Position numbers and translations under genes: made by a program. Positions 7,777 through 64,000 of a stretch of 64,000 bases of DNA are shown in pieces (within the stretch, counting starts at the first letter, position 1; each line of letters opens with the position of its first letter). Source of the DNA: Chrysomallon squamiferum (taxonomy: Eukaryota > Animalia > Mollusca); assembly GCA_012295275.1 (NCBI GenBank), contig CM022671.1:29698001-29762000 (forward strand), read 5' to 3'. Under the pieces are notes generated by a model. It was not told where the DNA came from. It did no database searches and worked only from the letters and a program-made list of their open reading frames with translations.

Positions 7777-10700
7777 CTGTTATCCAACTAAGCATCAAAA
7801 CATGATTTATTCTTCCTAAAATTATTTATTATATAACTATTTATATAAACACACTGATATACATTAACTCTCTGCATAATAAATCAAAAGCAAATATTTA
7901 GGAAAACAAGTACAGTAGAAGTAACACAAGACAGTAATTACCAGTGAGAACAGACAGATGCCGACGCTGATGTCCCACATTTTAATGGTCTTGTCCCGGG
8001 ATCCAGATATCAGGAAAGGTCCAGTTCGTTTTTGTTTTCCACCCTGAAATAATAAAGAAAAATTATTTTTAGCATATTTCATTAAAAACAAAAACAACAA
8101 CAACAATGAAATAGATAAATATAATCAATTTTTTTTTTTTTTTTTTTTTTAAAATTAAGCTAATGTTGACCAATTAACAATCCTGTTGAAAAACTGATTT
8201 ATCATCTTTTTCAAACATGTTTGTAGAACCCCATTTAAATTTTTCCTTCTGAACAAAACAATCTAAATCTACGGTCTGGTGTCATTAAATTACTCAACAA
8301 TCCACTGACAAAAATCTCTTTAAATAATATAAATTTATTTATCCAAAATCAAAAATTATTCAAAGAAACTTTACACCTGCTTTATTACAGGCAAAACTAA
8401 TAAAAAGAAATAAATATAAAGAAAATTTTAAATTTACAAATTTCGTTATTAATAATTAAAATTTTATTACACTTTTTAAAATTTTATGGTCTCTGATTTA
8501 TTGTTTGTATTAAGAAAGTACATTATTATTATTATTATTCTTTTAAATTTTAATGGAATCAGAGGTATTTCACATATGGATGACATGTGGAAGTACAGGT
8601 TAAAAGACTCACTCCAGTCTCCGCAGCCTCAGAGATGGCAGGCTGTGCTGATTCCGGTGCCCATGCAATACACTCCACAACATGCTTGTGTTCTCGCAGT
8701 TCAGCCTTGCATTCCTTCGTGGCCACAACCCAAACACGAACAGTGCTGAAAAAAAACACAACAAAAAAACAAACCATAATGAAATAGTTATACTACAAGT
8801 ATAAACCAGCATCATATTATTTACTGAAACATTAAACTACAGGGGAAAACTTTTTTTTTTTTTTATATCCCATTTCATTTAATGAAATATTTGTGTTACT
8901 GGTATAAACAGGTTTCATAAGGTTTTGTAAATTATTTATATGTATTAAGTGGAAGCTATCATAAATCTACTTGAAATAACATTACTATGCAGGAAACAAT
9001 CATTATTAACAGAGAACATGTACAATGTAACATAATTAGCAGATTTTATATAAACAATGTATTTTATCATATTTCTTAAATAAATGATATTATTACCATG
9101 TATACAAATGTATATTGAATCTTGTCCTATGCAGTAAATAATATTTTTATTTATTCTTCTGTCATTATCTGTCATTAGCACTTTTAAAACTGCTTTTTGT
9201 AAAAAATAAATATCTTTTAGATGCACCAAAGTAGCCTGACCAAGTTAAATTTCATTCTACTAATCTAAACTTAAATTTCTGGAATTATGTATTCAATGAA
9301 AATGACTAAAATAAATGACATCTTAGTAGTTAATATAAAACTGAATTAAGTCTGGTAGAGATAAAGGCGCGAGTATTATTATGGTGTGATTTAAATTCAT
9401 TTTGTTACCTGATCATTAGAGCAGCTGGCCAACAGCGATCCATCATGGTACACTCGTATCATGCGTACCCATTCTCTGTGTCCAGTGTATGTCTTTACAC
9501 AGTAGCTAACAAAAAAAAAAAAGATAATTTTTATGCTAAGTTTGTTTCCATGCTGCTTTCAAAATTAAACTGATCAAAAATAAGAAATAATTAAAGTAAT
9601 AATTATATAAAATCAAGGATAAAATGGACAATAATCACATAAAGATCATACTGCATCATATGACAGTGAAAGCTAAGAGATTCATATTGAAAATGAAGGA
9701 AAGAATAAATTCAAACTTAAATAAACCGTATAATAATACATACCCAGTAGCTACTTCCCACATTTTGATAGTTTTGTCTCTTGAACAGGATACAATAAAA
9801 TCTCCACTGGGCATGAAAGCCACACTCGAAACATTGTGGTCATGTCCTGAAATCAAATTTTCTATGTTAATTCTGTTAAACAAAATACTGATGAATCCTA
9901 TTTTCAAGAAACAAAAATTAATAAATAAAAACATATAAAAAAAATATATAATAATTTGGTCATGTTATGTAAATCTAACAAACTAATGTTACTTTGGTTA
10001 TGGTTTAAAAACATTTTTTTTTTAATGTAGTATTATTAAAAATTAAGAGTCGTTAAACCATCAAATTAACTATTAACTCAGATAGTATGATACATCTTTT
10101 AGTTAACTACACAATAACCTTTCCACACAAAAACACACACACAAACACCGACAAAAGAGAACAATGTGTGTATTATTGGTATTTAAAGCTTTCATTACTC
10201 ATTTTTATTATTTGTTGGATAAATGGTTACCATGCAAGGTCTTGATGCACTCATAAGCCTGGAAGTCCCATAGCTTCACAGCCATATCAGCTGAACAGGA
10301 TGCTGCAATGAAACAATAAAATTGTACATACTGAATTAAAAACTTTACCTGTCTGTCTAAATAAATAGTGAAAATGCTAATAGAAATAACATAGAAGAGA
10401 AATAAATCTTAAAAAAAAAAAATACAAAAAAATACAAATAATAAAAACAAACTTTCGGATCATTAACATGTTTGTATGTTTTTAATATTCACAACTAAAC
10501 TGTTATTTAGTTCATTTTTTCATAATAGTATTTTTCATTTTTTCAAAATCCATACCCAAAAATTTTCCAGACTGGTCAAAAGCAATATCTTGTACTGAAT
10601 CTGTGTGTCCTTTTAAAGTCCTCTCGTAATCGCCAGCTTCAAAATCCCAAATCTGTCATTAAAACAATTAAAAATTAAATAACATTTCAGCAAAAAAAAT

Positions 10701-13700
10701 AAAATAAAAAAATAAAAATTATGACAATAAACTATAAAGTTGTACTTATATTTTGTATGCGTTACCTTACCATGTGTGTTTTGTGTTATTTGGTTTAAAA
10801 CTACCAAGAACATAAAAAAAAAAAAAAAAAAAATCTAAACTACACTAATAATATTAAGAATGTGGCACAATTTCACATTCATATTACAAAAATATTTCAA
10901 AGGAGAAAAAACAACTGTTGAAGTAAATTTTAGAACAAACATTTAAATAAAAATCTGCACCAAAATGAATCATGAACAATGACCACAAAAGTCTTTTAAA
11001 AACTAATAAACAGAACAGAAATAAATAAGAACAACAGAGAATTAATGGAGAAACAACAAAACACAAGCCCAACAATAATAAAAAAAAAAAAATTTACTAG
11101 GGAGAGGAAGTAAGACACAGTAAGAATGGTCCAGTTATAAAACTTGACAAATGATATCATTTAATTAAAAGTGATGTTTTACTTTAATAGTGGCATCTTC
11201 ACTGGCAGTGACCATGACACTAAAAACTGGGTGGAAGAGAACTCTAGTAATTGGGCTTCGATGGCCGCTGAGGGCGTATCGTTCTGGTGGTCGTGGAATC
11301 CACTCAGAGGGACTTCGTTTGTCACGTGTTGGGGCACCGGTATTGAATTCTTTTTCTGCTTCAGCAAGTTTGGCTTCCAGTTCCATAACCTACACAATTA
11401 TTATATCACATATAACAAATGTAATTATTTCTACTACAAATGTATCTCTTATTATAACACTTAAAACCAAAAATATTAAGAATTAATTAATTAAATTTTC
11501 TAGCATTATCTTTCATTAACAGCAAACAAACTAATTATAGTGTAAGTCCTTAAGTAATAATGTTTTTTAAAATATATTTGATAAAACTGAAGAAAATCTA
11601 TGCCAAACTAATTTGATAAAATCACTGATTTTATTTTTCATTTCTACTCTTAATAATGAAACAATAAATTTTTAATGCAAATAAAATATACAATAACATT
11701 TAAAACAAAAATAAAACAAACATACCTTATTGAAGTATTAAATATTGATCAATTTTAACATTTAATTAATATTAAAGATTTTACAATTTAATTAATTCAG
11801 TTGCATTTGAACTCTTTTGATGCTTAATTACATTCATAAAATAAGTCTAAAATGATATTTTGATCAATATTTTAATTTTTATGCCTTGAATTAAAAAGTA
11901 CCTTTTTCTGAAGCCTAATAACACTAGTCCATTTTTTCTCCAAAAGTCCTGCATACTTCTTTTCAATTTCAAGTGGCTACAAAAAATAATTTTTTTTTTT
12001 TTTTTTTTTAATATTATATTACTAGAATATAAATGTTCATTAACCCAATTATAAACACAAATATAACTGGAAAGAGCACAAAAAAAAAGAAAAAAAAAAG
12101 AATTATTTGAAAATTATTTCTACACCAATTTAAAAAGACAAACAGACCCCCCGCCATAATTAAAACAATTACTCCACCGAAAAACAAGAACAACCCAACC
12201 CACTTTTTTTGTCAAACTTACCAAGCCAGACTCCTTTTGAAAATGTTCGAAAGCATTCATATAGCCATTAGCACTCAGGTAGTCGGCAATTGCCTTATTT
12301 CTGAAAATAAATTTTATAGTTAAAGCATATTTTATTAATTTTTAAAATAAATAATTTAAAAACAAAAAGACAAACTTTTTATTTGCATGTAAAGTGACAT
12401 ATTTTTATTTGTTAGTTTTAAAAACAGATTAAAAATATCTGAATAAATTAGATATAAAATTACTATTATGATGCAAACAATCAAAACCAAATTAAAAAAA
12501 AAATGTCTAACAATTTTTTTTTAGAAATAATTAATCATGGGATCTGAAGATCTAAAGATCTGAAATATGTTAAATGCTTAACAAAAAGATACAAACTCTA
12601 ATCCTATACGCACGACTAATCCTCTTATTTAAATGACTGGGGTTAATTGTTTTTACAATTTATGAACAATTAAACAGAATGTATTTAGGATTTATGCAAA
12701 AGAAAAATCAATATTTATAAATACAGATGCATGTACTTCATTCATCTGATATTGAAATGCATCGCAATTCCCAGAAGATTTAACATCATCGATTCTTACT
12801 TATCATCCTAATGAATGACAAATGTTTTCCCTTAGTTCCATACAACAGTTATGCACAGACATGATAAAACATCTGTTTCAGAGCTTTGTACTTAACGGTA
12901 TGTTGAGACAGTGTCTTTTTATACTGCCACAAACCGCTAGCAGCATCTGCTGATTCTATGGGTGGAGTGAGGCAAAACATTTCTCATTCATTACTTACAG
13001 ATAACAGAACATTCCAAGCATTCCTCACATAAACTCAGTTATTAATGAACATACAACACGAAACTGTTAATTCTAATTAAAAATATAAATTAATATTTTG
13101 TTTCAAAACAGCATAATTAGCCTTAGTGTGTGTGTGTGTATACACATGGGTGCACACACCTAGACTATTGCAAAAATAAAAATAGACAAAATGATTCAAG
13201 CGTATGCTTTAAATGCCACATAACATATGGTGTATTTATCATATCTGGTATTATCATATCCAGCTGACACAGCATAAATGAACATTATAATTATTATATT
13301 TAACATATGCACACGGTTTGTTTGTTACAATGTTGCATAAAACTAAGCAGAAATACATAGATCTTATCAATTAAAAATTATAATAAAAAAATAAAATGTG
13401 AGATAGAAACAGAACCAAGTATTCAGTCAAATAACGCTTGTCACTGTTTTATTATTTTTATTTGATTTTATATAATTTTCAAGCTGAACAACTGAAATAT
13501 AAGTTGCTGGAGATGTATACACGTAACGAATATTACAGACATTCATTAAAAAGTAACAATGTGTGTATTATTTAACATAATAAATAAATAAATCCACAAA
13601 TAATCAAACTCAAAATGATACATTAATACAAATGCCTCAACCTACAGTATAACAGATCTGTTTGCAAAATCTGATTCACACATTATATGCACGAGTAGTT

Positions 13701-14824
13701 CACAGAGAATAAACTAACGTATGTACACATCATGTTCATGTTAAGCTTAGTTTGTGGACACACATCCTATCTGCATAATTTACCTGCTTTCAATTCAAAC
13801 AGACACAATCAGCAGTGATAATACAATCTCACTGTTTTATTAAACTTGAACACCATTTCCCTGATGTTATTATATGAGAAAAATAAAATTAAAAAACCCC
13901 ACAAGGAAACCATTCAATAAAAAAAGTAAATTAAATAAAATATATAAATAAATAAAAAATTAATTAATTAATAAAAAAAATAAAAATGAATAATTCCTGA
14001 GGATGTGAAATAGAACCACTGATTAATCTTTTAAGGTCAACCCCCCCCACAAAAAAAAAACCCACAAGGAAACCATTCAATAAAAAAAAAAAATATATAA
14101 ATAAAAAAATAAAAAAAATAAAATTAAACTATAAAAATAAATAATACTCAAGTAAGTGAAATAGAACCACTGATTAATCCTCTAAGGTAACAACAAATAT
14201 TTGAAAATTAATAGTTTCAAAATCAAATGATCATATGTTAAAAATCTTCCATTTTAAAAGAATTTTACAATATAGTTTCCAAATGTGGAGCAAAGCAATT
14301 TACTTTTCATTCTATATTTTTATGAGAAGTTATTTCTTAAACTAATAACTGACATTCAAGCCGTGACCATGTCAACGATAGTTAAGAGATAATAACGACA
14401 AAAAGATAATGATTATCTCCTTCCACATGAATGATTTTATTATCATAAAGATATAAATATTTCAGTGTGAGAATCTTTTGTTGAAAGAATGTACTGGAAG
14501 GTGAATAACGAAGATGTATAATTCTGTATGCTGACCTACAATTACCAAAGCTGTACTTACAGAGCTCAAGACAAAACCTGTTTACAATACACACACATTA
14601 ATGTCTATGTTAAGAGCATAGCATAATCATGAGATATTTCTTTTTACATTCACCTGTGCAAATTTCTCTTTGTTTTTGAATACCTTTTATAGCTAGGACA
14701 GTTTTATGTATGTCTAAATGGCTGCAAATGTCACATTTAATCCATTTCTCATCTGAACATTTAATTTTATGATGTGTAACAGGCTTAGATTTCTTAACGC
14801 ACACTTATGCACATGCAAACACAA

Positions 14825-19973: not shown

Positions 19974-22900
19974 ATGTCTTTGAACAAGTTTATGCATCCA
20001 AGAAACAAATACAGAAACCAAAAACCTAACTTTAAAGAGCTTGCATCAAAATATCCAGAGTTTGCACAGCACACCACGACAGACGAATCAGGAAAGGTAC
20101 ATCTTGACTTCAAGGATCCAAATGCACTTCGAGCCTTAACCAAAACTTTGTTAAAACATGATTTTCAACTTGAAGTGGACTTGCCATCTGATCGTCTGGT
20201 TCCAACTATACCACTTCGTCTTAATTACATTCACTGGATTGAAGACATTCTTGGCAGTAAGGAAGCAAATGTCAAAGGGATTGATATTGGTAAGAGTTAA
20301 ACTTAAAGTGAATCATTGCTGGTGTGTCGATGCCATAACAATTTGACAAGGATTTTCAGTTCATTAAAAAAAAATATTCTGAAAAAAAACTCCAACAAAA
20401 AAACAAACATTGTCAGACTTCATACATCCTCTTGAGTTTCTTGTTTTACAGTTGTAATTTATGATTAGCAAAGATTGCCATTAATAATTCAATAATTATT
20501 TGGAAGTAAAACCTCTAAAAATACTCTTTAAATTTTGTTTAAAAGTATTTTCTATTTTTAATGTGAAAATTGCAGTTACTATATTAAACAGTAAATGATT
20601 TAAAAATTATTTGCATAGTGAATGCATAAAATTTCACTGCCAATACCAAAATGTCCCAAATGTAAAACAAACTGAAATTTAAAGTTCATAATATATATTT
20701 ATTATGTAGTTAAAAACAACTTTATAAAAATGTATTAATAATTATTAATAAATACATTTTAAAATATTAGAGTGTAATAGATTTTAGAGCTATTGTAATA
20801 TAGATACAGTATTAATTAACTAATTATTATTGTTTATTTGTTCTTTTTTATTTATTATATAAATGCTTGTGTAAAATATTTGATAGATAATATTTTCTCT
20901 CACTAGGAACGGGATCTTCGTGTGTATATCCCCTTCTTGGCTGTCGACTCAGTAAGTGGTCATTCCTGGCTACAGAAATAGATGCACAGAATGCTCATTT
21001 TGCAGCCAAAAATGTGGAAAAGAATAAAATGGAAGACATGATCAAAGGTTTGTTACTCTGATATCTGGAACTGTATTATTTGTTTAATTTAAAAATACAT
21101 ATATATATTAAATAGTTTCACTTATTCATTTTAATTAACTAGAAACCTTTTTGAAAATACAGTGATGCATACATGTCAATAAATGTATTCATCAAATCTT
21201 TTTGTATATTTTTTAATGTTTGGTTGTAGTGAAAAAAGTTTCAAAAGGAGACATCCTACTGGCTGCTGTGAAGGATCTTGACGAGTCCTATGACTTCTGT
21301 ATGTGCAATCCTCCTTTTTTTGCCGATCACCTCGAGGCTCAGGCAGTTACGACGTCACGCAGCATAGACAGAGCTGACCCGTTTTCTGTGAGCACTGCCA
21401 GTCCCGAGGAGAGTATTTCTGTTGGAGGAGAGACAAACTTCATCTCGCAGATGATAGATGAATCAGTAATGCTGAAAGAGAGGATAAAGTTAGTGTAATT
21501 CTTACCTGAGTTGAGTGTACTGTAATTTGTTGGTAATGATAATTAAAATGTGTAAATACAATAAGTTTTAAGTCATTGTTTTTGTAATATGACAGACATT
21601 TCAACTGCCTGTTTTTATCTCTCTGTCTGTCTGACTGTTGTATGAAGCTGGTGTTGTCTCCCTTACCACACATGCCAATAATATTGTGGGTTTTTTAAGT
21701 TTTCTTATCAAATACATATATGTTTGTTTTGTTAACTGAAACAATAAGCTGCACTATTTCAGGATATTTACAAGTATGGTTGGAAAGAAATCAAGTTTAC
21801 CACAGCTGAAAGAAAAACTTCGATTAACACAGGTACCAATAATATTTTCGAAATATTTTTAATAATAATTAGTACTGGAACATCTGAAATAAAACATTTT
21901 TAGATAGATAATAAAATCTTTGAAGAAATTAATGTTAATTAATTCCATACATTAACAACTATAATACTTTTGTATAATTATTAATATGTAATAATTTCAC
22001 CTGTAGGTCTGTATTCAAAATTCAATATTTCCATTCCTTTGAATCCAAAGTGAAGAACCTTAAACAGATACAGTTTTTCTATAGTAACAGTAATGCATTT
22101 TTTTATAATTTTTCAGGGAGCCAGTTTTGCTACTACTGAATTTTGTCAGGGCAAAACAATGAGATGGGGAATTGCTTGGACATATGACAATTCTGTTACA
22201 TTTCCAGTAAGAGGCAGAGATAATGAAATAATTTTTATATTAAACTGTCTGTGATGTACTAGATTATAATATATTTATTTTTATGTGATGAAAAAAAAAA
22301 AAAATTATTCAAAATGTATAAAATTAATGGAAAAGGGTTCGCTAAGTAAAAAAAACTATTACAAAACATTCATTTCATATGAGTTTTTAAAATGTTTATA
22401 TTATATTCCAGTTCATAACTAATTCCTGTTTTAAAATAATGATGTTTGTGTCAGAAATTTGATTTGGATATAATGAAAAATTGATTTAATTAGACAGATT
22501 TGGTAACCCCTAAATATTCACTAAATATTCATTTATTAAATACATGATTAATCTTCATTAATACACATTCAGTGAAAGATTAACCATTACTGTTCGTGTA
22601 GTTTCTGGGAATTTATGAATGAATTACATTGGCTGTTCTGAAGTTAAGCCAGAAGAAACTTATTTTTATTTATTGTTCCTCACAGTTAAACTAACTTGGT
22701 AACTGAGTGTAACAAAACAAATTCTGTCAAATATAGATCTCTGTATTTAAGACTACAATTTTGTAGAAATCACTTTTCCACGCGACAAGGAAAGAAAAAC
22801 CTCCACTGCAGTACGTGATTCCCCTTGGAGCAGGTTGTTGTCTTTATGAAACAGCCGACCTCACTCAGTACATCAGAAATTTACTCACAGAACTCCAGGT

Positions 22901-29451: not shown

Positions 29452-32400
29452 TTATCCATCTGTGACGGCTACTTCTGTCAGTTTTGTTTCAGGGTTTGTG
29501 TCTCCGTTAAGTATCGGAGTAGGTGCATTATCGAGTTTGATTTGCAATTCATCCTTAATGCACTTCTCGGACGAGTTTTCAGTTTTGTCTTTGTGATCAC
29601 AACATCCATCAGTCTGTGCGTCGGTGATTTCAGTGATTTTTGCTTCACTTTTGTTCCCTGGGTTTCGTTTTGACATCTCTTGTCGGAAACGCTCGATATC
29701 ATCCGGGCTGTAAATTTTGCAAAATATTCAACCAATCATTTCAATATTCTTTCTTCTACTGATTAAAATGTTATTACTTTAATAATGTGGAACTAATGAT
29801 AAATTTCCTAAAAATTATTATTATTGGTTTTTGTTTTGTTTTTTAACTAACATTTTTCAAAATGGCAAAATGAAATTGCAAAATAAAATGTACATTTACA
29901 CTATTAAAACACTGTAGAGCTTTCCTGTGAATTGATATATATATATATATATGAAAACTGAAAAACATGCTTTGTGTCTAGGTTATTATGTGTCTGGCTC
30001 TATGTGTATATTGTACATGCTCATTTAAACTTCTTTTTTTTTGTCAGAACAGAATGATAAAGAAAACCAAATAGATTTGTGAATCAGAAATATTTACCTT
30101 ATTTGAACAAAGACGATGCCATTGATTACATTCAGTGTATCCAAAACACTTGATAAAGAAGGTGTCTGAATCTGAATAAAAAGTGATGAAACGATTTAAA
30201 AATTAGAAACTCCTAAAAACACTTTTTTCACAAAACAAAATTCACTGTTGAATGTTACCTAAATTTTAAAAATATTGGTATTTTGGATGACTAATGAAAG
30301 CACCCGCTACCCAAACAAATTTTTTTAAAATAAATTTTCTATCTAATTAAAACAATGATCGACACTTTACAGTTGTATACTTTGTTCATTTTAAAGAATT
30401 AAAAGTAATTTCACTACAAATGGTTACTTCATTTCAACAAAAGAACTGTACCAAACCATAATGTGACTGTGTTTTTAACATGACAGAAATATTCTCTTGA
30501 ATTTTAAACTGCACTTGTAACCTTGATCTTACCTTGTCTATAGGAGGAAAACCACATAAAACTGGCAAAATACAAAATGGAAATACCTTTCCTCCAATGA
30601 GTAATAAATAAAGCTATGAGCATCAACCTACTCACTGAATAATTTAAAACCACAATTCCGGTTTACCTGAATAGGAGGAAAGATGATGTTCTTGTCTCCT
30701 TTGTAAATCTCGTTCATCTTTTTCTGAAAGACAACAGCCTGCTGTGTGAGATGTTTCAAACACTCGGAACTCTCCTTAGTCCGGTCATGCTCCTCTCCAA
30801 GCTGCAAAACAACAACTTTATTCATTACCAGTTACTTGTGTTTTCTCGTTTCCCCAGTGTTAAATGGTTTATGCAATAATTTCTAGTGGGGAGATCAGTT
30901 CAACTTGGAGCTATGAAGTTTTGGTACCAAATCAGTTACAGATCAGCCTGACACAATATACCCAGACACACACAAATGATCATTATAAATGTGTAACAGT
31001 TTGTGATTACAATATAAACAGCACAAGGAAAACGATGTCTAAATACATAATAATTCAAATTACCATCTGCTTGTAGATTGCGTATGCTTCCTTCTCACTC
31101 TGAAGTGCTGCACGGAAATCTCCACGACAAGAGTGAGTCCTAGCAACCAGATGGTAACTCATGGCAACCTTTAGACTCTTAGCACCAAAGTACCTACAAA
31201 GAAAAACAACAACATTTAACTTTAAAATAAAATACTGGCTGGACAAATTTTAAAATAATTAAGTAAGTTCACATAAAAGATTGACCAACACTGTTTAAGA
31301 TCAATTTTGTACCCATGGCATGAAGCACCAAGCTCCATAAAGAGAAGGTGAGATTAACATGGAAATATTTCTATAACCTCAACTGATTATGAGAATTGTC
31401 ATGGCCAAAAGGCTTGAACCCTTGCCCGTGAGGTTTATGTAAGTGTATGATAAATATAATTGTGCCACGTCAGAAATGACTTTTAGAAAACAAATTTGCA
31501 GTCTCATCTTTGCAGAATATCTACTGCACATAGAAATTGATGATATTTTTGTAGAAATTATTAATATAAGTAGAAAAGTTTCTTTTCTTTTCTTTTAATA
31601 TCAAGCTAAATCATAAGAAAAATGTACACACATTTAATATCAAAATGACAGATTTAAAAAAATGACTACTAAATATAATAATTTTATTTACTATATTGTA
31701 TCCATGGCATGAAGCACCAAGCTCCATAAAGAGAAGGTGAGATTAACATGGAAATATTTCTATAACCTCAACTGATTATGAGAATCATCATGGCCAAAAG
31801 GCTGGAACCCTTGCCCGTGAGGTATAAATAATATAATTTCTGAACTATTTCAACAGCCCAGATACACAGCTGTTTCATGTATCAAAATAAGCAGTGTAAA
31901 AGTGTATAGAGTTTTAATTCATTACACATTTTTTATTTTTGTTTCCAAGCTTAATGAAGCAGTCATAACCAAATGTAAGGAAAAGTAAGGAAAACATTCA
32001 CAAACAAAATCATCAGTTACTATGAATGAAACAACAAATTTTGAAAAACCTGAATTGTATAGGAAGATATTATCATTCGTTTTGTACCCATGGCATGAAG
32101 CACCAAGCTCTATAAAGAGAAGGTGAGATTAACATGGAAATATTTCTATAACCTCAACTGATTATGAGAATCATCATTGCCAAAAGGCTTGAGCCCTTGC
32201 CCGTGAGGTTTAAATACAATTTCTGAATGTTTCAACAGCCCAGAAACATAGCTGTTACATACAACATAAAAAGCAGGGTAAACTTGTGTGTAATTTTAAT
32301 TCATTACAAATTTTGGATTTCTCAGCTTAATGAAGCAGTGATAACCAAATACAAGGAAAAGCAAGGAAAAGATTCATAAAACAGTTGTTTTTGTATCCAT

Positions 32401-35400
32401 GGGAAAAAGCTCCATAAAAGATGATGGATTAAATGGAAATTCAAACTCAACTGATTATGAGAACCATCATGAAAACCTGGAACCAAGGTTTTACTGAATG
32501 TTTATGGATAAAACAGGGTAAAGTTGTTTTAATTATCCATTTTGGCTCAGCTTAATGAAGCAGTGATAACAAATACAAGCTCCATTAAACTAGTTGTTTT
32601 GTATCCATGGCATGAAGCACCAAGCTCCATAAAGAGATGATGAGATTAACATGGAAATGTTTCTATAACCTCAACTGATTATGAGAACCATCATGACCAA
32701 AAGGCTGGAACCCTTGCCCGTGAGGTTTAAAAAAAAGTGAAAACAAGATGCCAAAGCAAAACCTCTTTAGTAACAGCTTTAAACAGAAGTATGAATACTG
32801 TCTATATACTTTTTCTGTCATGATGAAACAAGCCAGTTCTGTTTCTTGCTCTACATATTTGCAGTAAATTGTCTCATCTGAAACTTTCCACATACAGAAC
32901 TTACTTAACATGTCTTTGGTCAATGAATTAGAGTTGTGTGACAGTTTGAATGAGAAATTACTCAGTGGGAACAAGAGTCAATTCTGTTGTAATTATTGAA
33001 TACAGCTTAATTAGAAATCTAAACTGGTTATTTTTAAGCAGCTTAATGAAATATTTGATAATACCCTTAAAAATCACTCTACAACAATACTGTTATCATT
33101 CTGTACCCATGGCATGAAGCACCAAGCTCCATAAAGAGATGATGAGATTAACATGGAAATATTTCTATAACCTCAACTGATTATGAGAATCATCATGACC
33201 AAAAGGCTAGAACCCTTGCCCGTGAGGTTATCAAAAGTACAGGTAAAAACTGAAATAAATGAAAAACCTGTACCTGTATATATGATGCAGTGTACATAAA
33301 ATTACATCACAAACATTTATTGATGATGAGTAAAAGTATCTTATAACTGTTTACAAAAAATCACAACAGAAATTTGGATGTGACCATCAGAAACTGCAAG
33401 AAGTAAAGTCCTGTGAAAACAAATCAAACTGGGTACTGTGCCACAGAACTGCAAAGTTGTACTCAAAGAAGAATAGGCAAGAGTAACAAGGAAATGTGTC
33501 TAAAGCTCAAAACTGATTTTAAGTTTTATTACAATGAAAATTAAGCCCAGAATACATGGGCTCCAGAGGAAGATGTTTGAGAAGGGACATGGAAATACAG
33601 ACACAGACCGTAACAGCGTAAAACTGTCAGATTCCTTTAAAATATAGTTTGAATCTTTTTAACATTTTCAACTTGGTATTCGGTTCAGTATGAAAGAAAA
33701 AAAACCTGGTTGAGCATTTCAAACTGTTTTTTGTTACTGGGTTTTTGCATTTCATTGTCATCTTGAAAAAAATATTAAATAAATTTAATAAATGGTTACA
33801 CTGGTGCAACACTAATAGAAGTGGTACTTTTAAAAAGGACAAGGATTTAATAAATACAGAGAATTAAAATAAATATATATTAACTAAGAAGTAAAACTTT
33901 AAAAAAAGGTACTTTGATAAATAAAATATATGCTTCTTCACAAAATTCAATAGAAAATCTTTCCTGATCTTAATGTAATGCTACTGGATTTCTTCAACGT
34001 TTGAGACCAAACCTATAAAGTAGCTTCTGGAACAAAAATCTCATATTCTGTACCCATGGCATGAAACACCAGCCTCCACATGGAGCGAGCAGGTGGGATT
34101 AACATGGGTTTCTGTTTACTGTCACCTCAACTGATTATGAAGACCATAAAAGCCTGTAGGCTTGGCTCCTTGCCCGTGAGGTGTACAAACATGGAATATG
34201 AAATATTTTAAATTAGTGAAAAAAAAACCCAATTATATTCACTTTCTAAAAATAAAACTTCAGACAAAGCAACTGATATAAAGTTAACTTTTGTTATTGC
34301 TAGAGATTGTAATAGTATTGTTAGAATATGATGTTCTGAAACAAATTGTTTAAATTAAATTGCAACAGAATCTTACCTGACGTTCAGCTGTAGTGTGTGT
34401 TCAAGAAACTTCAGTGACAGTTCATACTCCTCCACAGCATGCAAGATCAGACCAATGTTGCTCTGAAAAAAAAATAAAAACTTTAATATCTCAGTATTTT
34501 ATAACATCTCATAAATGCATTCTTTTTCCCCATCTGCATTTCACTGGTAATTCAGAAGGAAAAAAAAAAAAAAATCATGTCACCTGTTTGTTAATGACCA
34601 AAATTTTCAATACCATAAACAATATCTTGATACTAAATTTTAGGTATAATTTCCTTTTAAATTTAAGATGATGAATTAACATTGTTTTAATATCTGAACA
34701 TGAATATATTTTTTGTTTGTTTATTTGTTGTTTTTTGTGGGGGGGTTGTCATCAAATATTATTAAAAGTATAGGACATTATTGACTAAGAACAAGAACTT
34801 TTCTTTTTACATGTACCTTCCCATAAACAGAACAGTAGTTGTCTGTCATTATTTCATGCAGTGGGTTTACCAAGTAGTACTGATTTTGTAATGTCAGTGA
34901 AGGTCTGTTACCAATTTCCATGAATAATTCAGACATAAAAAAAGTTTTACTTACATCAATGAGTGCAACATCTGGATGGTTTTCTCCGTGACACAGGATG
35001 GCCAGGTAACGAGCCCTGTACATCAGTCTCAGGGAACTTGATACCTGGTTGTTGGCAAAGCAGTACAATGCCAGATGTGTCTGTACAAACAAAATAATTA
35101 AATAAATTAAAAAATTTTTTTTTTAATAAAATCCCCAACTACTTACATTGCAGTTAAACCTAATACTAGAGTTTAAACTAACAATTATTAAAAGAAAAAT
35201 AGTTTAGTCCAGAGGATACACAATGCAATATTTACTACTTTGTCAAACAGGACTTTAAGTGATGAAAGATAAAGACTGAGCCTTTTTTAATAAATAGATC
35301 ACCATTTGTTTCAAATAAAAACAAAAATCTTCTCAAAAGTTGATGTTGTCATTTTCAAAAATCTTTCAAAATGATTTCTAAATATATAGAATTCACCATA

Positions 35401-35728
35401 TTTTAAAACAATGCTGAAACAATCACATTTATCGTCACAATTTACTACTCACGTATTCTGTGATGGTGTTTGGATGGTCAATGCCAAGCACACGCTCGCT
35501 CATGAGAACAGCTCGCTGTTGGTATGACAACGCTTCTCCATAGTCACCCATGATGTAGTTCAGTCGTGCCAGAAGTCGCAGACAGGCAGAAATTTCTGGG
35601 TGCATTGCACCGTAAACATTATTGAGGAGATTCAGAGCTTCACTGATCAGTTCATAGCCCTCTCTCAACAAACCCTGCTGAATTTTAGACTGTCCACTCG
35701 TAAAGAAGTGATAAGCATCAGTAGCCTA

Positions 35729-35798
<70 letters not shown>

Positions 35799-38700
35799 AA
35801 TAAAATAAAATAAGTTTACCAAAGAAAAGAAAGAGATTATGCTACTGCAGCCACTAATAGAAAACAATATATAGTACTTGATTAAATTAATAAATATGAA
35901 TATCTCTGGAAGCATTTGGAAATCTGGGCAAAGACAAATATATCAAGTTTAACCTATTTTGCAATGTATTGATCTCCTTACTCATAAATTTTAATTTTAG
36001 TGGCATTTATAATTCCTGGCAAAGTGTTAAGAATAATTTCACAATTTACACATTTAAAAATTTATATGCTTTTTAATAATTTATAATTTTACTAGTTCCC
36101 AAAGTATATATATATATATATAAAAAATAATCAATGTAATTAATACCACTTACTTTAGGATGTATATGCTTGACAATAGGGTATACATTGACAATGTCCT
36201 CTTCAAAGAAAATCTGCTTGTTGCGAATGTCCAGATGGTACTCTCTCAGCAGAACCTGGATTCCCACCGAGCGACAGAAAGCTCTCATAAGTGACACACG
36301 CTGCAATCCATACTTCTCTACCGCAGAGTCCACAGAATCACTGCAACAGAAACAAGCTAATAAGTGTAAAATGAATCACAGTATTCAATTGTGTATTAAT
36401 AAAATAAAATAAAATATTCAACATCACTGGACAACAATGTATATTGTATTCAACATCACTGGACAACAATGTATATTGTATTCACATGTTAATACAGCCC
36501 ATCTCTGCTATATGCTTTATATTAAATTATTCCATCAATCAAACTTAATAAACCGTTTAATAAAATACACTGAATTTCATAAAGTATAGCAATATATTTA
36601 AAACAATCTGTAAATAATTATCTTATAGTTGAAGACATTTTCTATTTTGTTGGATTTAACTGTAATTTTACATGATAAATCAGGTAGTTAACATTAACAA
36701 ACTACATTTCATTTCCATTACTTAAAATAAATTCGATAATAAAAAACTTTTATTCCTTACTCATACTGAACTGTAACTTATTTTAAGAATGTCTAAATTA
36801 ATTTATTCATTATTTATAATTATGGATCCACCACAAACAAGTTTTTTAACTTTAAGGCCATGTTATCTCACTCACCACTCGAGGGTGTAAGTGTAGTAGT
36901 CACTAACTTCATCAACAATCTTCTTCCACAGAGTTTTGGGCGTTTCAGAAACCCACTCACTGCTTTCTGCAAAAAGAAACATACAACAATATTTACTGAC
37001 TATTAATATTAGCGAACTACATTTCATTTTCATTACTTGTTGTTATCATTATTACTTTACGTTTTTTTTTAGATTTTTGAAAGTCAAATCTAAGAACTGA
37101 TCTTCAGGCGTCATTGAACTAATTTCTATAATATCCAAACCTTTAACAGCCTTTTCAGAATACCATTATAACAATCCCTAAAGAAAGGTAATATATATAA
37201 TTCTAGACATGAACAATGAATTGGTATTTAGGCAAGCCAAAGTCTGTGAAAGATACAGCACGGCCTGGCTGGGAATCACTGCTACAGTTAAAAAATAACC
37301 ATAAAATTATCAAAAAACTTAAAAATAACTCACCAACACTGAATACAAAGCTGTGCTTATTCTTCTTCTTGCTTTTGCGTTTAGCAGTTCTGCTGGGTAT
37401 CTGAAAAAAGACAACAACAGAAACCTCTGAAACATTTGTCATGTGTTATTGAAAGCACATAATGACCAAATACTCCAAATACTTATTTTACTACATGGCA
37501 TTAAGAAATGTTTCAAATATTTAACAAAATTAAAACCAATGACATGCCATTGATGTATACAATTAATAAAAAAAAATTAAATAATAAAGGCTATTTATTT
37601 GGGTTTTTATATATTTTTTTTATTATTAATCACAAAATGTTGAAGAAAGATTGCATTTAAAAAAATGTAATGAAATTAACTTAATCTTTCCTTCTCCAAC
37701 CCCCAAAATTTTATTGAACACCAATGGTACAAAATATGTCTTACAGAACAAAACATGTTTCAGGTTAGATAAAACAAAACAAAAATGTAAGCAAATGAAA
37801 AATCAAAAACAACAAAATAACAACAAATAAAACAAACATTTCAATAAATGTTATTTCCAAAAGATGTTGCATTTTGAAAAACTTTAAAGAAAAAATTAAA
37901 AACTGGACCTGTTTAATTAAAAAAACCAGCATTATCATAGAAGGAAAAATTATTTGTAACTCTTTTAAAAACTCTTCACCAATATCATTTATTTGTATCC
38001 ATGGCATGAAGCACCAAGCTCCATAAAGAGATGATGAGATTAACATGGAAATATTTCTATAACCTCAACTGATTATGAGAATCATCATAGCCAAAAGGCT
38101 AGAACCCTTGCCCGTGAGGTACAAAACATATTTTTTAACATGTAACAAAAACATGAACTCAAAACTGAAAAAGAATGTCAAAGAAACTACCATCTTGAAT
38201 TCATGACAAACTTGAAAATAAAGTAAATTGTTTTTTTAATCCACTCGATCCTGTTAATGGGTAAAAAAAAAAAAAAAGAAAGAAAAAGAAAAAAAAAAAA
38301 AAGAAAAAGGAAAAATATTAAGCTGGCAACAACTGACATGTATTATCCTTCTGGAGAGAACTGTTAAAGACATTTGTTCATCAACTGAACATTACAACTA
38401 GGATTAGAGTAATCCATAGTCTGGGAATTAAACTGAGCGATATACATACATATACAATATATATAGATTAAATTTTAAACTCAAAATGTAGCAAGTGATT
38501 GCTACTATACAGAAATGATTATTAATCACTCTACCATTAATTCAGTTAAAATGAATTCTTCACATGCAAGTTTATGCATCAAAATAAATCTGTGGTGTAT
38601 TTGTTATCGCTGATTTTATCTGTTGGTAATTAAAAAAGAAAAGATTAAAAAAATCATATCTACTATTATTCAGGTACAGTACATAGAGCAACGAAGAACA

Positions 38701-41700
38701 TTTTCCTTTTAATCATTAATGTTTATGAAAAATGACCTTATTTACAGTTATAATATTATGTTATATACAGGAAGACATCAACAAAATGATTACAAATAAA
38801 TAATGTATACAGCTGTACCCATGGCATGAATCACCAAATCCAGTAAAGGAAACAGTGAGATTAACATGGACAGTTTCTTATCACCTCAGCTGATTATCAA
38901 GTTCATAATGGCCAAAAGACTAGACTCCTTGCCCGTGAGGTTTCATACCAACTGATCATTATTCCAAATATCCCTCAGAAAAACCATCACAATAATAATA
39001 ATAGTAATAACAATGACAATAACAATTACTATAGGAATAATAACAATAATAATAGTAACTAACAATAAGAAGAATAAACTGAAAACAACATCTCCTTGTG
39101 TTATCAGAAAAAGTGTAAACATCTCATGAGTAAAAGATTTCTACAAATATCTTTATCCTTTTCCCAGGATGAACAATTAAAACCATCAAGTTTATATACC
39201 AACACCCGTTAATTATCTACGTTATTACATACCTCCTCAGTTGTCACTTGAGCATGCGGTGTGGGGTATGAGCCAAGGTAACAGTTGAGAAAATGGCTGA
39301 TGGCAGAAGAGAGGTTGACCAGGTCGACACCCTGCATGTACGTCTTGAAGATTCGCTTAGCAGCACGACAGATCAACTCTCCTATAGCTATACTCTGTAC
39401 AGATATTTAAATAATTAAAAAAATAAATTAAAATTTATAACATTTTAGTACTGTATTATTTGCTATCATTTATTCAGAAGTAAAATATTCCAGTAAATTT
39501 TAATATTTAATACAAAAAAAAAATAAAAATAAAAAAAAAACAACAACATATGCATCAAAAATTAATTCAATAAAAATAATTGTTTATCCTTATTTTTAGA
39601 AAGAACTAAACTGTCTTATGTGATGAATTAAACTGAACATTTTTCTTGTGGAAACAGATTCATGAAAAACTGGTAATGTTTCTAAAATAATTCATAACAT
39701 GAAAAATAAAAATAAAAATAATTGCAGAAATATATAACAGAAAAACAAAAGATATATATTTACTCACAAAGACATATGATACTGTTGAGTATTTGGAAAA
39801 TATGTCTGCCACTTTGCCAAGGTAACGCATGTTTATTCCACGATTGTGCATTGCTTCGCTCAGCGTCAGCCCGTCAATTGGAGAAGATGTGTGATCTAAA
39901 CAGTCATTCACCTGAACAATTCACAAAACACAAATATAACTGAGCAATTTACAAAGCAACAACCCTGAGTAAATCCCAAATCAGAAAATAATAATCAAAA
40001 TCAAGCATTTGCCAAGAAGACTGAATTAGATTCAAAGACCTTAACCAAGATCTGAACAAATGTTTCTAACTTTTGAACAGTTTCAAACCAGTATTACGTT
40101 TTTTCTTGTCAAAAGACATGAATAAAAATCGGAAGAGTAAATTTCAGACTTACCAATGTAGGAATCTGGTGCAGTAGAAGAAATTCTGCAGCATCCTTAA
40201 CCAACTGTTTCTCCATCTTGAACATTTTGCTCTACAAGGAAACAAATATATCTGTTTAATACAGTTTACCATACTGACTCACAGAAACACAGACATGCAC
40301 ACACAGACACTGACACACATACACAGACACAGACACACACAGTCACTTAAGGACATCATTTTATTCAAAATCATAAATTTCTCTTTGAACAAAGACATTT
40401 AATGTGAACTTACTTACAAATGAATTTATTTCACATCCTTACTTCAAACCAACTATGAAATAATTTGCCAGAGGATTTTTTAAAAAAAGAAAAGAAAAAG
40501 AGAAATTTCTGTGAATGTACATTATTATTTCTGTATATCAGACAGTTAAGATAGAGTATAAATAAATACAGAAAGTGTGTGGAAGGACAAATGAATGACT
40601 GAAGATGAGGAGGAATGTTTTAACTCACCTCAGGATCAGCATGCTGAACATGTGGCTGAAAGACGTCTGGATTAAAGGTCATGGTGAATTCTGAAATAAA
40701 ACAAAATATAAACTTTTTAAAGACACACAAATCATCAAATTTACTTCTTTGGAAATCAGATGCACTTAACAACAATAACAATACTAATAATTAATAGCAA
40801 AAACAGGCAATTTTGATCACACCATTGAACTGCCTTAATATTACTATAATATCCTTATTAATATTAATAACAGGTTTGCTTATGTAAAACAAGATCATGT
40901 TTGTGATATATTTACCACACAAAAACAATGTTTTTTTTACCTGTTTCACTCAAAGACCCCACAGCTTTGGCAGCTTTCTTTACAATTTCTCTTGTGCTTT
41001 CTTCAACTGAAAGTAATAAAACTGATATTAAGATTCTACAAGACAAATACACTAATCCTTTTCAGTTTATACTGTCAATGTTACTTGATTTTCATGAACA
41101 TTAGGAACACCAAAATAATCAAAATAACATGTAAATATTCCCTGTACTTCAGTTTTAAGAACATTTTAACTGCAAAAACACTGTAAGATAATAATACAAC
41201 ATTAACACTATGCTGAATGAATGAATGAATATCAGTGATTTGTGACTTAAATAATTAAGCTAAATTAAAAAAAAAAAAAATTTAAAATCAAGCTAAAATA
41301 CTGTAAAGAGCTATGCCACCATTAAGATAAATTTAAAAATAGTGTGAACATTATTTACATGTCTGATTGTCTGTTCCTGTGAGGGTCTCAACAATCTTCT
41401 TTGCTTCTTCTGTAGCAATGTCATCGTCAGACTTGTCCTTTTTGTTACAGTCATGCTGTTCATTTACCAGCTCTTCTGTCGACTGAAGTACATACACAAA
41501 GTATGAAACATTTATAAAATCTGGAAATTTTAGGATGAGAAATATTCAGTTATTTTCAAAGTTTATGATGTAAACCCACAATGTGTTTTTCTATTTCCAA
41601 GAAGTGCTTTTATTTTTAAGAGATAAATGTTACAAATGCAGAACTCGACATACCTTGATTTCTACAGTTTTCTTTTCTAGTTGAGTTTCTACGTCAGTGG

Positions 41701-57765: not shown

Positions 57766-58524
57766 CACTGTATCATAGATTAATTAATCAATACTCCGAT
57801 CAACAAAAGAAAAGTATGCTGATACACAATTGTTTCTACAGAATTTGAGTATAATTTATACCGTTAAAATGAGAAATTTTAATTCATAAAATTAATCTAT
57901 ATATGTTGTATAATTAGTAGTCTTTCGTTTTCTCGTCCAGTCCGAATGTCGGTATTATACGGAGATAGCCGACGCTTTGTTACATTATTCAGTTATTTCA
58001 AACGGCAGGTACTTATATTAATTTTTCAGTTTTTATATACAGAAACAAGTTGTTTAGATGAAAAAATTAAGATTAAAAAGAAATGCAGGACGTCAATAAT
58101 TTAAAACAGTTTAGCATCAACAGTGATGTTTTTAAATAGTCGGTTTATAATTTCACTAGATGTAGAAGTTTTAATTACGAGTTGCTGTAATGAAAGTGAC
58201 AGATGAAATTTAGAATAAACGTACTTTAAATTTTCAAGAAGAAAATTGAAAGTTAAAATCATGAAAGTATAGAACATTTGGAAAGTATAAAAATACTGTT
58301 TGGTCAGTTTTATATTTAGTATTATTTTATTTGTTAACATGACTGGTGACCTAAAAGAATAAAATTATAATTTAGAAATATAAACAATGGTATGTTTGTT
58401 TATTTGTTATTATTTGATTTGATTTTATCATACCGCCACACGTACAGTTTAAGAATAAACTTGGTAAACAAAAATATCGGACTTAGTTATTAACACTATA
58501 TTATGACACGAGTTTTACTGAGTT

Positions 58525-58780
58525 GAATATAAGTGAAACATTACTTATATTAATCATAATAAATCAGTAACAAATTCTATTAATAAAGATCTTAAACTGA
58601 ACTATTCCAGTGAACTAAGAAGCATAATTTGTACTCTTTATAATTATCTAGTTTTACTAACTAGAATATAAGTGAAATTTACTTAAATTAATCATAAAAA
58701 AATCTATAATAAATTATAATAATAATAAAGATCACAGTTAAATTGAAATAGTCCATTTGAACTGAAAGGTATAATTTATA
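58525..58780. repeat. Diverged tandem duplication of about 140 bp
   Basis: GAATATAAGTGAAA...TTAATCATAA...AATAAAGATC...TGAACT...ATAATTT occurs twice. Confidence 0.75.
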
Positions 58781-59250
58781 TTTTACATAATTATGCCGCA
58801 AGTAGTAATGTTCGCGAAGTTTTCTGTTTTTAATTTGGTTAACATGAGCTTGCGACAGGTGTGATAAACATCTGTCTAAAAGAGAAACTGAATAATGTAA
58901 TTATAATATTTCGAGATAATTATGGACACGTAAATAAATAAATAATTATTCTGTTAACTTTCTGTACGTACTTTTATAAATGTTTTTGCATAATTTTAAC
59001 AAACACAAAATTGATGTCAATTAAAATGAAACGAAGTAAGCTTATGATGACTATATATATAATTGATATTTATTAAAATAATGGAGGAGGATGTGCACAC
59101 AGTTATACATACAAAAATTTAATAATAAATAAATAAAATAAATAAGCACTAAAATAGTAAAAGTAAACAAAAATCTTACTTCAGTTTTACATTATTTTTT
59201 TTTTTTATTATAACGAACAAAATATTCTCGTAAAAATGTTCTTTAATTAT

Positions 59251-60972: not shown

Positions 60973-63054
60973 ATTACAATAATTATAGTTTCCAGATTTC
61001 TTATCCTGTATCCAGAAAACAGAGAGAGAGAGATATATATTAAGCTTTGGTTCACAAAATGAGATTATCCAAAAATATGGATAAACCCTGGTCCCACGTT
61101 AGGATCATACATTTTATGATATGTGTAGTAACAACAGTATTAATAGTAGCAACCATTCACCAAACTTTTCAAACTAAATAGTGTGTGAGTAAAACTTTTA
61201 ATCACTCTTATTTCAAAACTGCAGAATTTAAATGCCATTTAAAAAAAAGAAAAAAAGAAATAAAGAAGTAAAAAAAAAAAGATGTATAGAAAAACATCTG
61301 CCTTTAACAGAAATTTACAGAAATAGGCAAGATTAAAAATCAGAAAATGTATTAAAAAATATCACAGTTTAGAAAACAAAAGGATATAAATAGTAAAAAA
61401 ATTATGTATTGAGAATGACACAAGTTCCCCATGTGGTATTAATATTATACACAACATTAAGGGTCTTCCTTCATTTGCATCACTTTCAAGATGCTAAAAA
61501 TTAAATCTAGTTCTGGGGATTTGACATTGACATTGAATATGAAATTTTTAATAAGTAGTACCAGATAGTCCCATTTGTTCATTTCATACAGACAGTCTAA
61601 AATTGCTTACTGGAGATAGCACACAATATTTTTTAATATTTATATACAAAATGCCTTTTAACGGTAATGCTATTTATAATTTAACAGAATTAAACAGTTT
61701 TGGTACATTAGTATGTAAAACAAATATGTAATATAAAAAGATTCTGTTTCATATGTTAATATATATTCATGTATATGTTTTCACCTGTTATTTATTATGC
61801 TTTGAAAGATAAAATATAAAAAACTTACAAAAAACATTCTCAGTCTAAATAATGTTTTTTTTTTTAACTTTTTTTGTTTAAATACCTATATCTATATATA
61901 TGTATATACAGATAGATAGATAAATATACTGGTAAAAATTCTGAATGTGTAAGTAATTTTGGGATTATAAAACCATTTTACTTAATAGCTAAGAAAAAAC
62001 TGACTCTAAATAGCAAGAAAATGTTATTTGAAATAAATATATAATTTTTAAATTGTATTTAAAAAAAAATATATATATAAACATTTTCCTTTTCCTAAAT
62101 CCTTCTCTCCCTTCTATAAAATTTAAAGACAATATGTTTCATCCACACTGTTTTTCAAATGAAGATAAAAAGGTAAACACCCCCGCACAAACATTTAACA
62201 ATGCAACTGTTTTTAAAATATATCAATACATATAAAAATAAAACAATATATCTTTGGTTAAATGACATATGGCAAAGTGTGAGCAGATTTATGAAAATAT
62301 TACCGTTAAATAAAGCTAACACAAAATCCATTTCACATTTAGTATTTAACATAAAAACTTTTGTTACTGTGTCTCAAACATTAGTAAAATTCAGTATATT
62401 ACTTGCTGACTGTCGAAACAGCTGAGCTTCGAAACAAAACATTTGTTGGTGTTGAATTATTTACACTGATTCACTGAAAACACAAGGCATAATTTTTAAA
62501 AACAAATGGATTATAAATAATAGATAATCCAGTTACTTGTACTCTGCAATCTCTTTTTTAGTTTTTTTCAAAAATATTTATATTTGTTTTAATATATATT
62601 ATGCCATGAAGTGAGTTTTCAAGAATTAAGAATTAAACATCTGAATACTGGCACCTTGTGAATCTATGGAATCTATTTTTATAGGTCTAACTCTGCATGT
62701 TCCTGTTTGAATTAAAAGATTTTAATATTTTTAATTCTTGTTTTAAATAATTTTTGTTCAAAGATAAAAAGAAAATATACTTTTGTTTAATTTTATAATA
62801 TACAAGCGGAATTGCTAATGATAAATGTGAGTCTTTTGAATAACAAATCCATCTAATTTCATATTTTGCTATAAAATCTTTTATACAACAATTTGTCGAA
62901 TAAAAATAAATATTAAAATAATCCATGAGCAAAGATCTGCAACTTGGTCACAATGCGATTAATAAAATAGAATAATGAAAAACAATATCAAGCACATTCA
63001 ATTTCCTTAGCAACAGTATTGTTTTTGTTTATTCATTTAAACAAACCTGTTCTT

Positions 63055-63222
63055 TAGATGGAAAGGAACATTGATACAGGCATGAAACTGTTACTAAGAT
63101 GGAAGGGAACAATGACCTAGATGAAAAACTGTTGCTAAGATGGAAGGGGACATTGATACAGATATGAAACTGTTGTTAAGATTGAAGGGAACAATGATAT
63201 AGATGTGAACTGGTTGCTAAGG
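63055..63222. repeat. 41-bp minisatellite (4 clear units, decaying to about 63480)
   Basis: Unit starts at 63055, 63096, 63137, 63178 and 63219. Approximate consensus AAGATGGAAGGGAACAWTGATACAGATATGAAACTGTTGCT. Confidence 0.85.
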
Positions 63223-64000
63223 AAGAAAATAATAACTCATGTTGTTACTAAAGTTAAATAAAATGATGATCATGAGAAGACCCTTGTTACTGAGAAGTAA
63301 AGCATCAACAACAACAACAACAAAATAATTACTGACCTGTTGCTAAGATATACCTGAACAATAATGAAGATGTGAAATGGTTGCTAAAATAGAATGAAAT
63401 AAAGATGTGAAACTACTATTCAAATGGAAGGAACAATTATTAGAAAATTTACTAGTATGGAGTGGAACAGTGATATGTATGAAATTCGCTACTTTGCTTA
63501 TAGACAGATGTGGTTACAATTTTATTTATTTATTGTCACTATTTTTTTCAATGGCACATGCATGCTACACATCTAAAGTTCATATTGAAGTTATATATTT
63601 ATTGGAGATGGCAAAGTCATCTGTGACATGCTCAAAATTAAAAACAGTTTTAATGTAACATGATAATTAGGTGGATTAGTACATCCTTACTGTTGAAAAA
63701 TCAACTTTATTCTCCGACCTTTTATAATGCAATTTTAGGCTCTGAATGTCTCAGGGTCAGTCTTGTAAGTACCAATTCAGAATAAATAAAAATGAGCAAA
63801 GCTACAAATAAAAAAATAGTGATGAAATAAAAAAAATAAGCATGACGATGACTATTGTAATAAATAATATGGCTTACTGGTCGTCTGTTGTATGTCATAA
63901 TTTTTTTTTTTTTTTTTTAGAAATGATTTGTGAAGAACCTGCCTATAATACATAAAAAGATATTAAAAAAATATCACAGCTGCATCAGGTAAAATATTGA

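Follow-up and report, generated by a model that had tools for sequence, protein, structure and literature searches.

Introduction

Among box H/ACA small nucleolar RNAs (snoRNAs), SNORA48 (also ACA48; Rfam RF00554, clan CL00037) is an intronic RNA of two hairpins and about 135 nucleotides (nt). The published table in PMC6984369 lists U3674 and U3797 of human 28S ribosomal RNA (rRNA), and U2833 and U2956 of the Xenopus molecule, as its targets, 123 nt apart in both, and places three Xenopus copies within 1.7 kb. The guide role was still a prediction at the time of PMC8240307, and the entry in PMC4914119 gives SENP3-EIF4A1 as the host and vertebrates as the extent of conservation. Several H/ACA genes can share one intron of a protein-coding host in Drosophila, and vertebrates and silkworm are described as carrying one snoRNA per intron (PMC3089462); host switching is the rule among snoRNAs (PMC3511168). 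Here we describe an element repeated in two introns of the gene CLUH, within a 64,000-nt stretch of the genome of the mollusc Chrysomallon squamiferum (contig CM022671.1 of assembly GCA_012295275.1, forward-strand positions 29,698,001 to 29,762,000; hereafter the window, whose own numbering is used throughout). It is, very probably, a tandemly amplified box H/ACA snoRNA gene whose intact copies guide two SNORA48-type pseudouridylations of large-subunit (LSU) rRNA. The locus differs from SNORA48 in its host and in holding eight intact copies, six of them in one intron, and from the Drosophila clusters in phylum, host and snoRNA.

Results

The array and its box architecture

An earlier model-made reading of the window, for which no database searches were run (the sequence-only reading), had reported nine copies of a roughly 130-nt element, all sense to CLUH. 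Searches with BLAST and nhmmer, and with a covariance model trained on the eight intact copies, found these nine where they had been placed, all on the minus strand, with seven in the CLUH intron 31194-34376 and two in the intron 37401-39232, eight being intact and one degraded. A heavily decayed remnant at 33435-33562, which that reading had not listed, is a probable tenth. Elsewhere in the window the model returned no further match above 12 bits. A pattern of three guide strands plus ACA matched the window eight times and 100 shuffled sequences not at all. The copies and their introns are as follows.

31194..34376, minus strand: CLUH intron with six intact copies, one degraded copy and the decayed remnant; GT/AG ends, spliced in RNA contigs
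31306..31435, minus strand: intact H/ACA copy, main type; 158 bits, 3' splice site 112 nt away
31695..31824, minus strand: intact H/ACA copy, main type; 163 bits
32081..32210, minus strand: intact H/ACA copy, main type; 160 bits, has a 309-nt duplication unit in common with the 31695 copy (86%)
32390..32490, minus strand: degraded copy, likely a pseudogene; 31 bits, lacks the hairpin-1 5' and hairpin-2 3' guide strands
32598..32727, minus strand: intact H/ACA copy, main type; 156 bits
33100..33229, minus strand: intact H/ACA copy, main type; 159 bits
33435..33562, minus strand: probable tenth copy, a heavily decayed remnant; 20.4 bits, E 0.019 (rough calibration), nhmmer E 0.08
34047..34183, minus strand: intact H/ACA copy, divergent type; 129 bits, 72-74% identity with the other intact ones, H box ACAGUA
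37401..39232, minus strand: CLUH intron with two intact copies; GT/AG ends read from the sequence
37992..38121, minus strand: intact H/ACA copy, main type; 163 bits, upstream intron
38812..38942, minus strand: intact H/ACA copy, divergent type; 133 bits, 78-80% identical to the main type, H box AUAAGA

In each intact copy a 6-base-pair (bp) lower stem leads to a pocket and a variable upper stem; an H box of the form ANANNA comes next, then a second hairpin built in the same way, and finally ACA. The H box in the hinge and the ACA after hairpin 2 are present in 8/8 intact copies, the former as AUAGAA in six and as ACAGUA and AUAAGA in one each, just as the sequence-only reading had described them. 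Spacing is equally constant: in all eight the H box begins 14 nt past the first guide base on the 3' strand of hairpin 1, and ACA lies at the same distance beyond that of hairpin 2. Every intact copy has the box H/ACA layout. With this structure imposed, 93% of 208 cells are paired in the eight copies, compared with 25-46% in slid controls. The base pair of hairpin 2 is U-G in four copies, U-A in three and C-G in one, as had been claimed. The A-U versus C-G exchange claimed for the closing pair of hairpin 1 stood in part, the pair being A-U in four copies and C-G in one, with the two bases unpaired in the remaining three. A cleaner compensatory change is found in the upper stem, with G-C in six copies and A-U in two.

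Both pockets fit probable SNORA48 sites in LSU rRNA

The pockets were compared with ribosomal DNA (rDNA) of other eukaryotes, taken from 22 contaminant loci (L215-L236) in prokaryotic assemblies; Rfam confirmed LSU or small-subunit (SSU) rRNA in 7 of the 8 loci scanned. Hairpin 2 forms 7+7 Watson-Crick pairs around an unpaired UG of the LSU, 14 nt from the ACA. This site scores 33, against at most 17 elsewhere in 3/3 LSU sequences and at most 21 in SSU and 5.8S, and its score was reached by 6 of 20000 shuffles. In hairpin 1 the pairing is 5+5, with an unpaired UC lying 14 nt from the H box; its exact site occurs singly in 3/3 LSU and in none of three SSU sequences (54 of 50000 shuffles reach it). 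A pocket uridine is expected about 14-16 nt from its box. Counted on rDNA of other eukaryotes, the pairs flanking the unpaired UN total 10 bp for hairpin 1 and 14 bp for hairpin 2, compared with the minimum of 8 bp given for pocket pairing in PMC6049503.

The two target uridines are 123 nt apart in the four rDNA loci that have the exact site and no insertion. Fourteen loci extend 400 nt or more upstream; among them the exact hairpin-1 site lay at 123 nt in these four and a one-letter variant of it in one; in three it lay farther off across insertions, and in six it was absent (one diverged, five with unrelated DNA upstream). The pockets thus appear to fit the SNORA48 sites in the same order and spacing, the 5' pocket corresponding to 28S-U3674 and the 3' pocket to 28S-U3797, which would make the element a SNORA48 in the functional sense. 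The assignment to human numbers was made from the spacing and order of the sites and from what is known of the human ones, rather than by alignment with human 28S.

As by-products of this search, eukaryotic rDNA was seen to contaminate many prokaryotic assemblies (about 280 stretches by our estimate), and in several contaminant loci unrelated DNA is joined just upstream of the site, in the manner of insertion elements. rRNA scans of viral contigs gave 120 chance matches and then none.

Homologues keep the guides while their stems covary

A metagenome scan with the three pocket strands plus ACA returned 94 loci with 80 distinct matches. The fourth strand, GGGCA, which the pattern did not contain, stood 30-48 nt upstream in 20 of the 80, where about 1% would be expected by chance, and at least five of the six hairpin-2 base pairs could form in 20/20 of these matches versus 12/60 of the others. 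A chance match is probable for one of the 20, L151, whose surrounding DNA looks bacterial. The covariance model found 39 matches, 28 of them distinct; their alignment, fitted to the structure, has two-sided changes in 24 of 26 pairs. A MAFFT alignment was made of 29 sequences, comprising four of the eight window copies and 25 of the 28 distinct homologues (L151, the weak L134 and one near-duplicate were dropped). On this alignment RNAalifold recovered the two lower stems and, of the hairpin-2 upper stem, its base, but not the hairpin-1 upper stem; 14 of the 17 pairs that it predicted covary. Together with the 93% pairing among the window copies, this describes the hairpin-hinge-hairpin-tail fold of box H/ACA RNAs. 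In a tree of the 29 sequences the four window copies group at 94/88, their relatives being unresolved.

Pairing of at least 5+5 with the LSU site is kept in 23/25 homologues. A strict H box stands at 14 nt in 15 of the 25 and at 15-16 nt in three, with none in range in seven. Where host exons could be named (Pfam matches in 4 of 7 pieces scanned), they encode a DEAD-box helicase, a bromodomain protein, a PHD protein and a Ras-family GTPase, which by recognition we take to be DDX21-, BET-, TRIM33- and Ran-like. No CLUH exon was found beside the homologues at E < 1e-4 when 97 stop-free pieces were compared with the 94 loci.

Several homologue contigs carry two to four copies in different host genes (L142:3999-4616, L153:1078-3546, L162:3218-6388, L156, L177 and L180), and on L142 two copies lie between two adjacent exons; repeated local amplification seems to be a habit of this SNORA48-like family. 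On L180 a canonical copy is accompanied by a diverged paralogue (2623-2755, minus strand) whose guide strands are altered in both hairpins, possibly through a target switch or decay.

Relation to known families

Besides the targets, the window element resembles SNORA48 in the strands seen in the Rfam alignment. The consensus of Caenorhabditis ceN84 (RF01655) has the same guide strands in both hairpins and an ACA tail, although it scores 14-21 bits against a cut-off of 80. Plasmodium snoR31 (RF01606) shares the hairpin-1 guide strands only, and Schizosaccharomyces pombe snR90 (RF01442) the hairpin-2 strands only, in its own first hairpin; both score far below cut-off. None of these loose-threshold Rfam scores, SNORA48 included, is significant alone. 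One divergent copy submitted by itself gave an irrelevant match only, and four homologue loci gave no SNORA48 match at E up to 1. The element is most likely the mollusc counterpart of SNORA48 and nematode ceN84, to judge from the shared guides, and likely a SNORA48 orthologue, although it falls outside RF00554 as curated. Neither CLUH as host of a snoRNA nor H/ACA genes of molluscs were reported in the literature searched, subscription journals being outside its coverage.

Selection, duplication and decay

Among the eight intact copies, 0 of 24 guide columns vary, compared with 40 of 62 upper-stem and loop columns. The six main-type copies are 92-96% identical in the body and the two divergent ones 72-80%, whereas flanks of 100 nt are for the most part 44-57% alike, the background being 47%. 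Because the guides are invariant while upper stems and flanks vary, purifying selection on the copies, as the sequence-only reading had proposed, is supported by these comparisons. Two homologies are left in the spacers, of 309 nt at 86% and 236 nt at 72%, which we read as marks of local tandem duplication. The stretch 32377-32591, which holds the degraded copy, is skipped by the RNA contigs of 2/4 runs with 30 other letters in its place; this hints weakly at a copy-number polymorphism or a haplotype without the unit, or else at an assembly effect.

The host gene and its surroundings

The host is identified as CLUH by its protein matches. Of four exon pieces scanned, three hit Pfam models, for CLU_N, the CLU central domain and TPR. 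One exon of 90 residues matches the clustered mitochondria protein homolog of the vent snail Gigantopelta aegis at 100% identity and that of abalone at 96%, which marks the window as gastropod DNA. Two of its exons are:

35453..35724, minus strand: CLUH exon, TPR region; Pfam TPR_12, names the host gene by best matches
39233..39382, minus strand: CLUH exon, CLU central domain; Pfam PF12807, E 4e-13

Intron 31194-34376 is joined across by RNA contigs in 4/4 runs of one study. Within the other, upstream snoRNA-bearing intron, a weak Rfam match to the box C/D family snoU2-30 was seen at 39099-39164 on the minus strand (22.6 bits against 60, E 1.1); a scan for C/D guides against rRNA gave 5 matches, compared with 1-6 in 20 shuffles, none of them at this place. 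A LIS1-like WD40 gene (8500-11400, minus strand), a METTL16-like methyltransferase gene (20900-22900, plus strand) and CLUH (29400-50800, minus strand) are adjacent, named by recognition from Pfam matches. PAFAH1B1, METTL16 and CLUH are also neighbours on human 17p13.3, which would make this an old microsynteny. Three local tandem duplications or minisatellites unrelated to the array lie at 13891-14188, 58511-58794 and 63043-63387.

Discussion

The box H/ACA reading of the element holds, and it has been made specific because the pockets fit the 28S targets of SNORA48 and because homologues keep the guide strands while their stems covary. Several results nevertheless weigh against it. Double-sided changes occur in just 2 of 26 pairs among the eight paralogues. 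Single-copy folding energies are no better than those of shuffles (z -0.2 to -1.3); in most main-type copies hairpin 1 has a minimum-energy fold other than the H/ACA type, and forcing the H/ACA fold costs 0.5-8.1 kcal/mol. For these reasons the paralogues alone do not establish the structure. The Rfam comparison gave a loose likeness of guide strands to SNORA48 and ceN84 and no family match in the window at curated cut-offs; SNORA48 had the best E-value under the loose threshold (0.71, for one copy), at 14.2 bits against a cut-off of 50. As to the targets, the rDNA was fetched by the hairpin-2 site motif, which makes the presence of that site, though not its uniqueness, true by construction, and the human entry in PMC4914119 lists U3797 for the second hairpin and no conserved target for the 5' hairpin. 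RNA contigs, assembled from the one study, cover the introns patchily, copies and spacers alike, and no RNA ends can be read from them.

A rather unlikely alternative, though the one to be taken most seriously, is that the RNA is a SNORA48-type snoRNA expressed from one to three copies only, the others being passengers kept alike by recent duplication or gene conversion and not by selection on each. The near identity of the six main-type copies and the decay of two others would be expected from it, as would the skip of 32377-32591, if this unit is missing in some individuals; moreover, the release of six RNAs from one intron would require cleavage, which is itself a proposal. The pattern of change argues otherwise, since even the six near-identical copies vary in 10 of 62 upper-stem and loop columns but in 0 of 24 guide and 1 of 23 lower-stem columns. 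For most pairs of copies identity drops to background at the edge of the RNA, which fits selection, although conversion tracts could mimic it. That the element is instead a short transposon, a miniature inverted-repeat transposable element or short interspersed nuclear element merely resembling a snoRNA, would account for ten copies in 8 kb and for the lack of an Rfam match at curated cut-off, and is scarcely credible nonetheless: the copies share one orientation and are confined to two introns of one gene, with none elsewhere in the 64 kb, neither terminal inverted repeats nor a poly(A) tail can be seen, homologues elsewhere keep guide strands and boxes on covarying stems, and both pockets fit known rRNA targets.

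We also give little credence to a second target of the 5' pocket near the 3' end of SSU rRNA, besides the LSU uridine. The same hairpin-1 strands do pair 5+8 with a site there, and pockets are stated in PMC6049503 to tolerate four or more unpaired nucleotides. In the SSU pairing, however, six nucleotides are left unpaired, the first of which is not U in most loci, a non-canonical geometry, and an opened form sets a U 17 nt from the H box and requires mismatches. The shuffle control (165/20000) overstates the fit, the SSU site being similar to the LSU site. In the homologues the 5' strand lengthens the LSU pairing to 6-9 bases in 16/25 and the SSU pairing in 0/25, and the base that favours the SSU was fixed by the search pattern, two copies found by the covariance model being without it. 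An 18S site as the target of hairpin 1 was rejected in favour of the canonical LSU site, which matches the published table (PMC6984369). A dual guide, whose 5' pocket would modify or chaperone the 18S look-alike site in invertebrates in addition to the LSU uridine and whose gene was amplified eightfold in one host, is accordingly improbable as well.

If the copies are SNORA48-type H/ACA genes, they would be transcribed within the CLUH pre-mRNA, and their RNAs would be bound by dyskerin, NOP10, NHP2 and GAR1 and trimmed from the spliced intron, following established H/ACA biology. With several copies per intron, a cut between copies would also be needed, as for the Drosophila intronic clusters. 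The 5' hairpin would then direct pseudouridylation of 28S-U3674 and the 3' hairpin that of U3797 (human numbering). Local duplication is the likely origin of the array; gene conversion would then have kept six of the copies alike, and some others decayed.

The family and its targets were already known, as was the clustering of H/ACA genes in introns; what stands out here is the set of eight intact copies and CLUH as an unrecorded host. The array offers no new mechanism, and its use lies in annotation and in the study of snoRNA evolution. SNORA48, restricted to vertebrates in one catalogue, would be extended to a mollusc and to invertebrate-looking contigs missed by Rfam, and would be linked to nematode ceN84 through common guide strands. 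CLUH would join the snoRNA hosts, with a multi-copy intron in the style of Drosophila outside the insects, and the birth and death of snoRNA copies may be seen within one locus.

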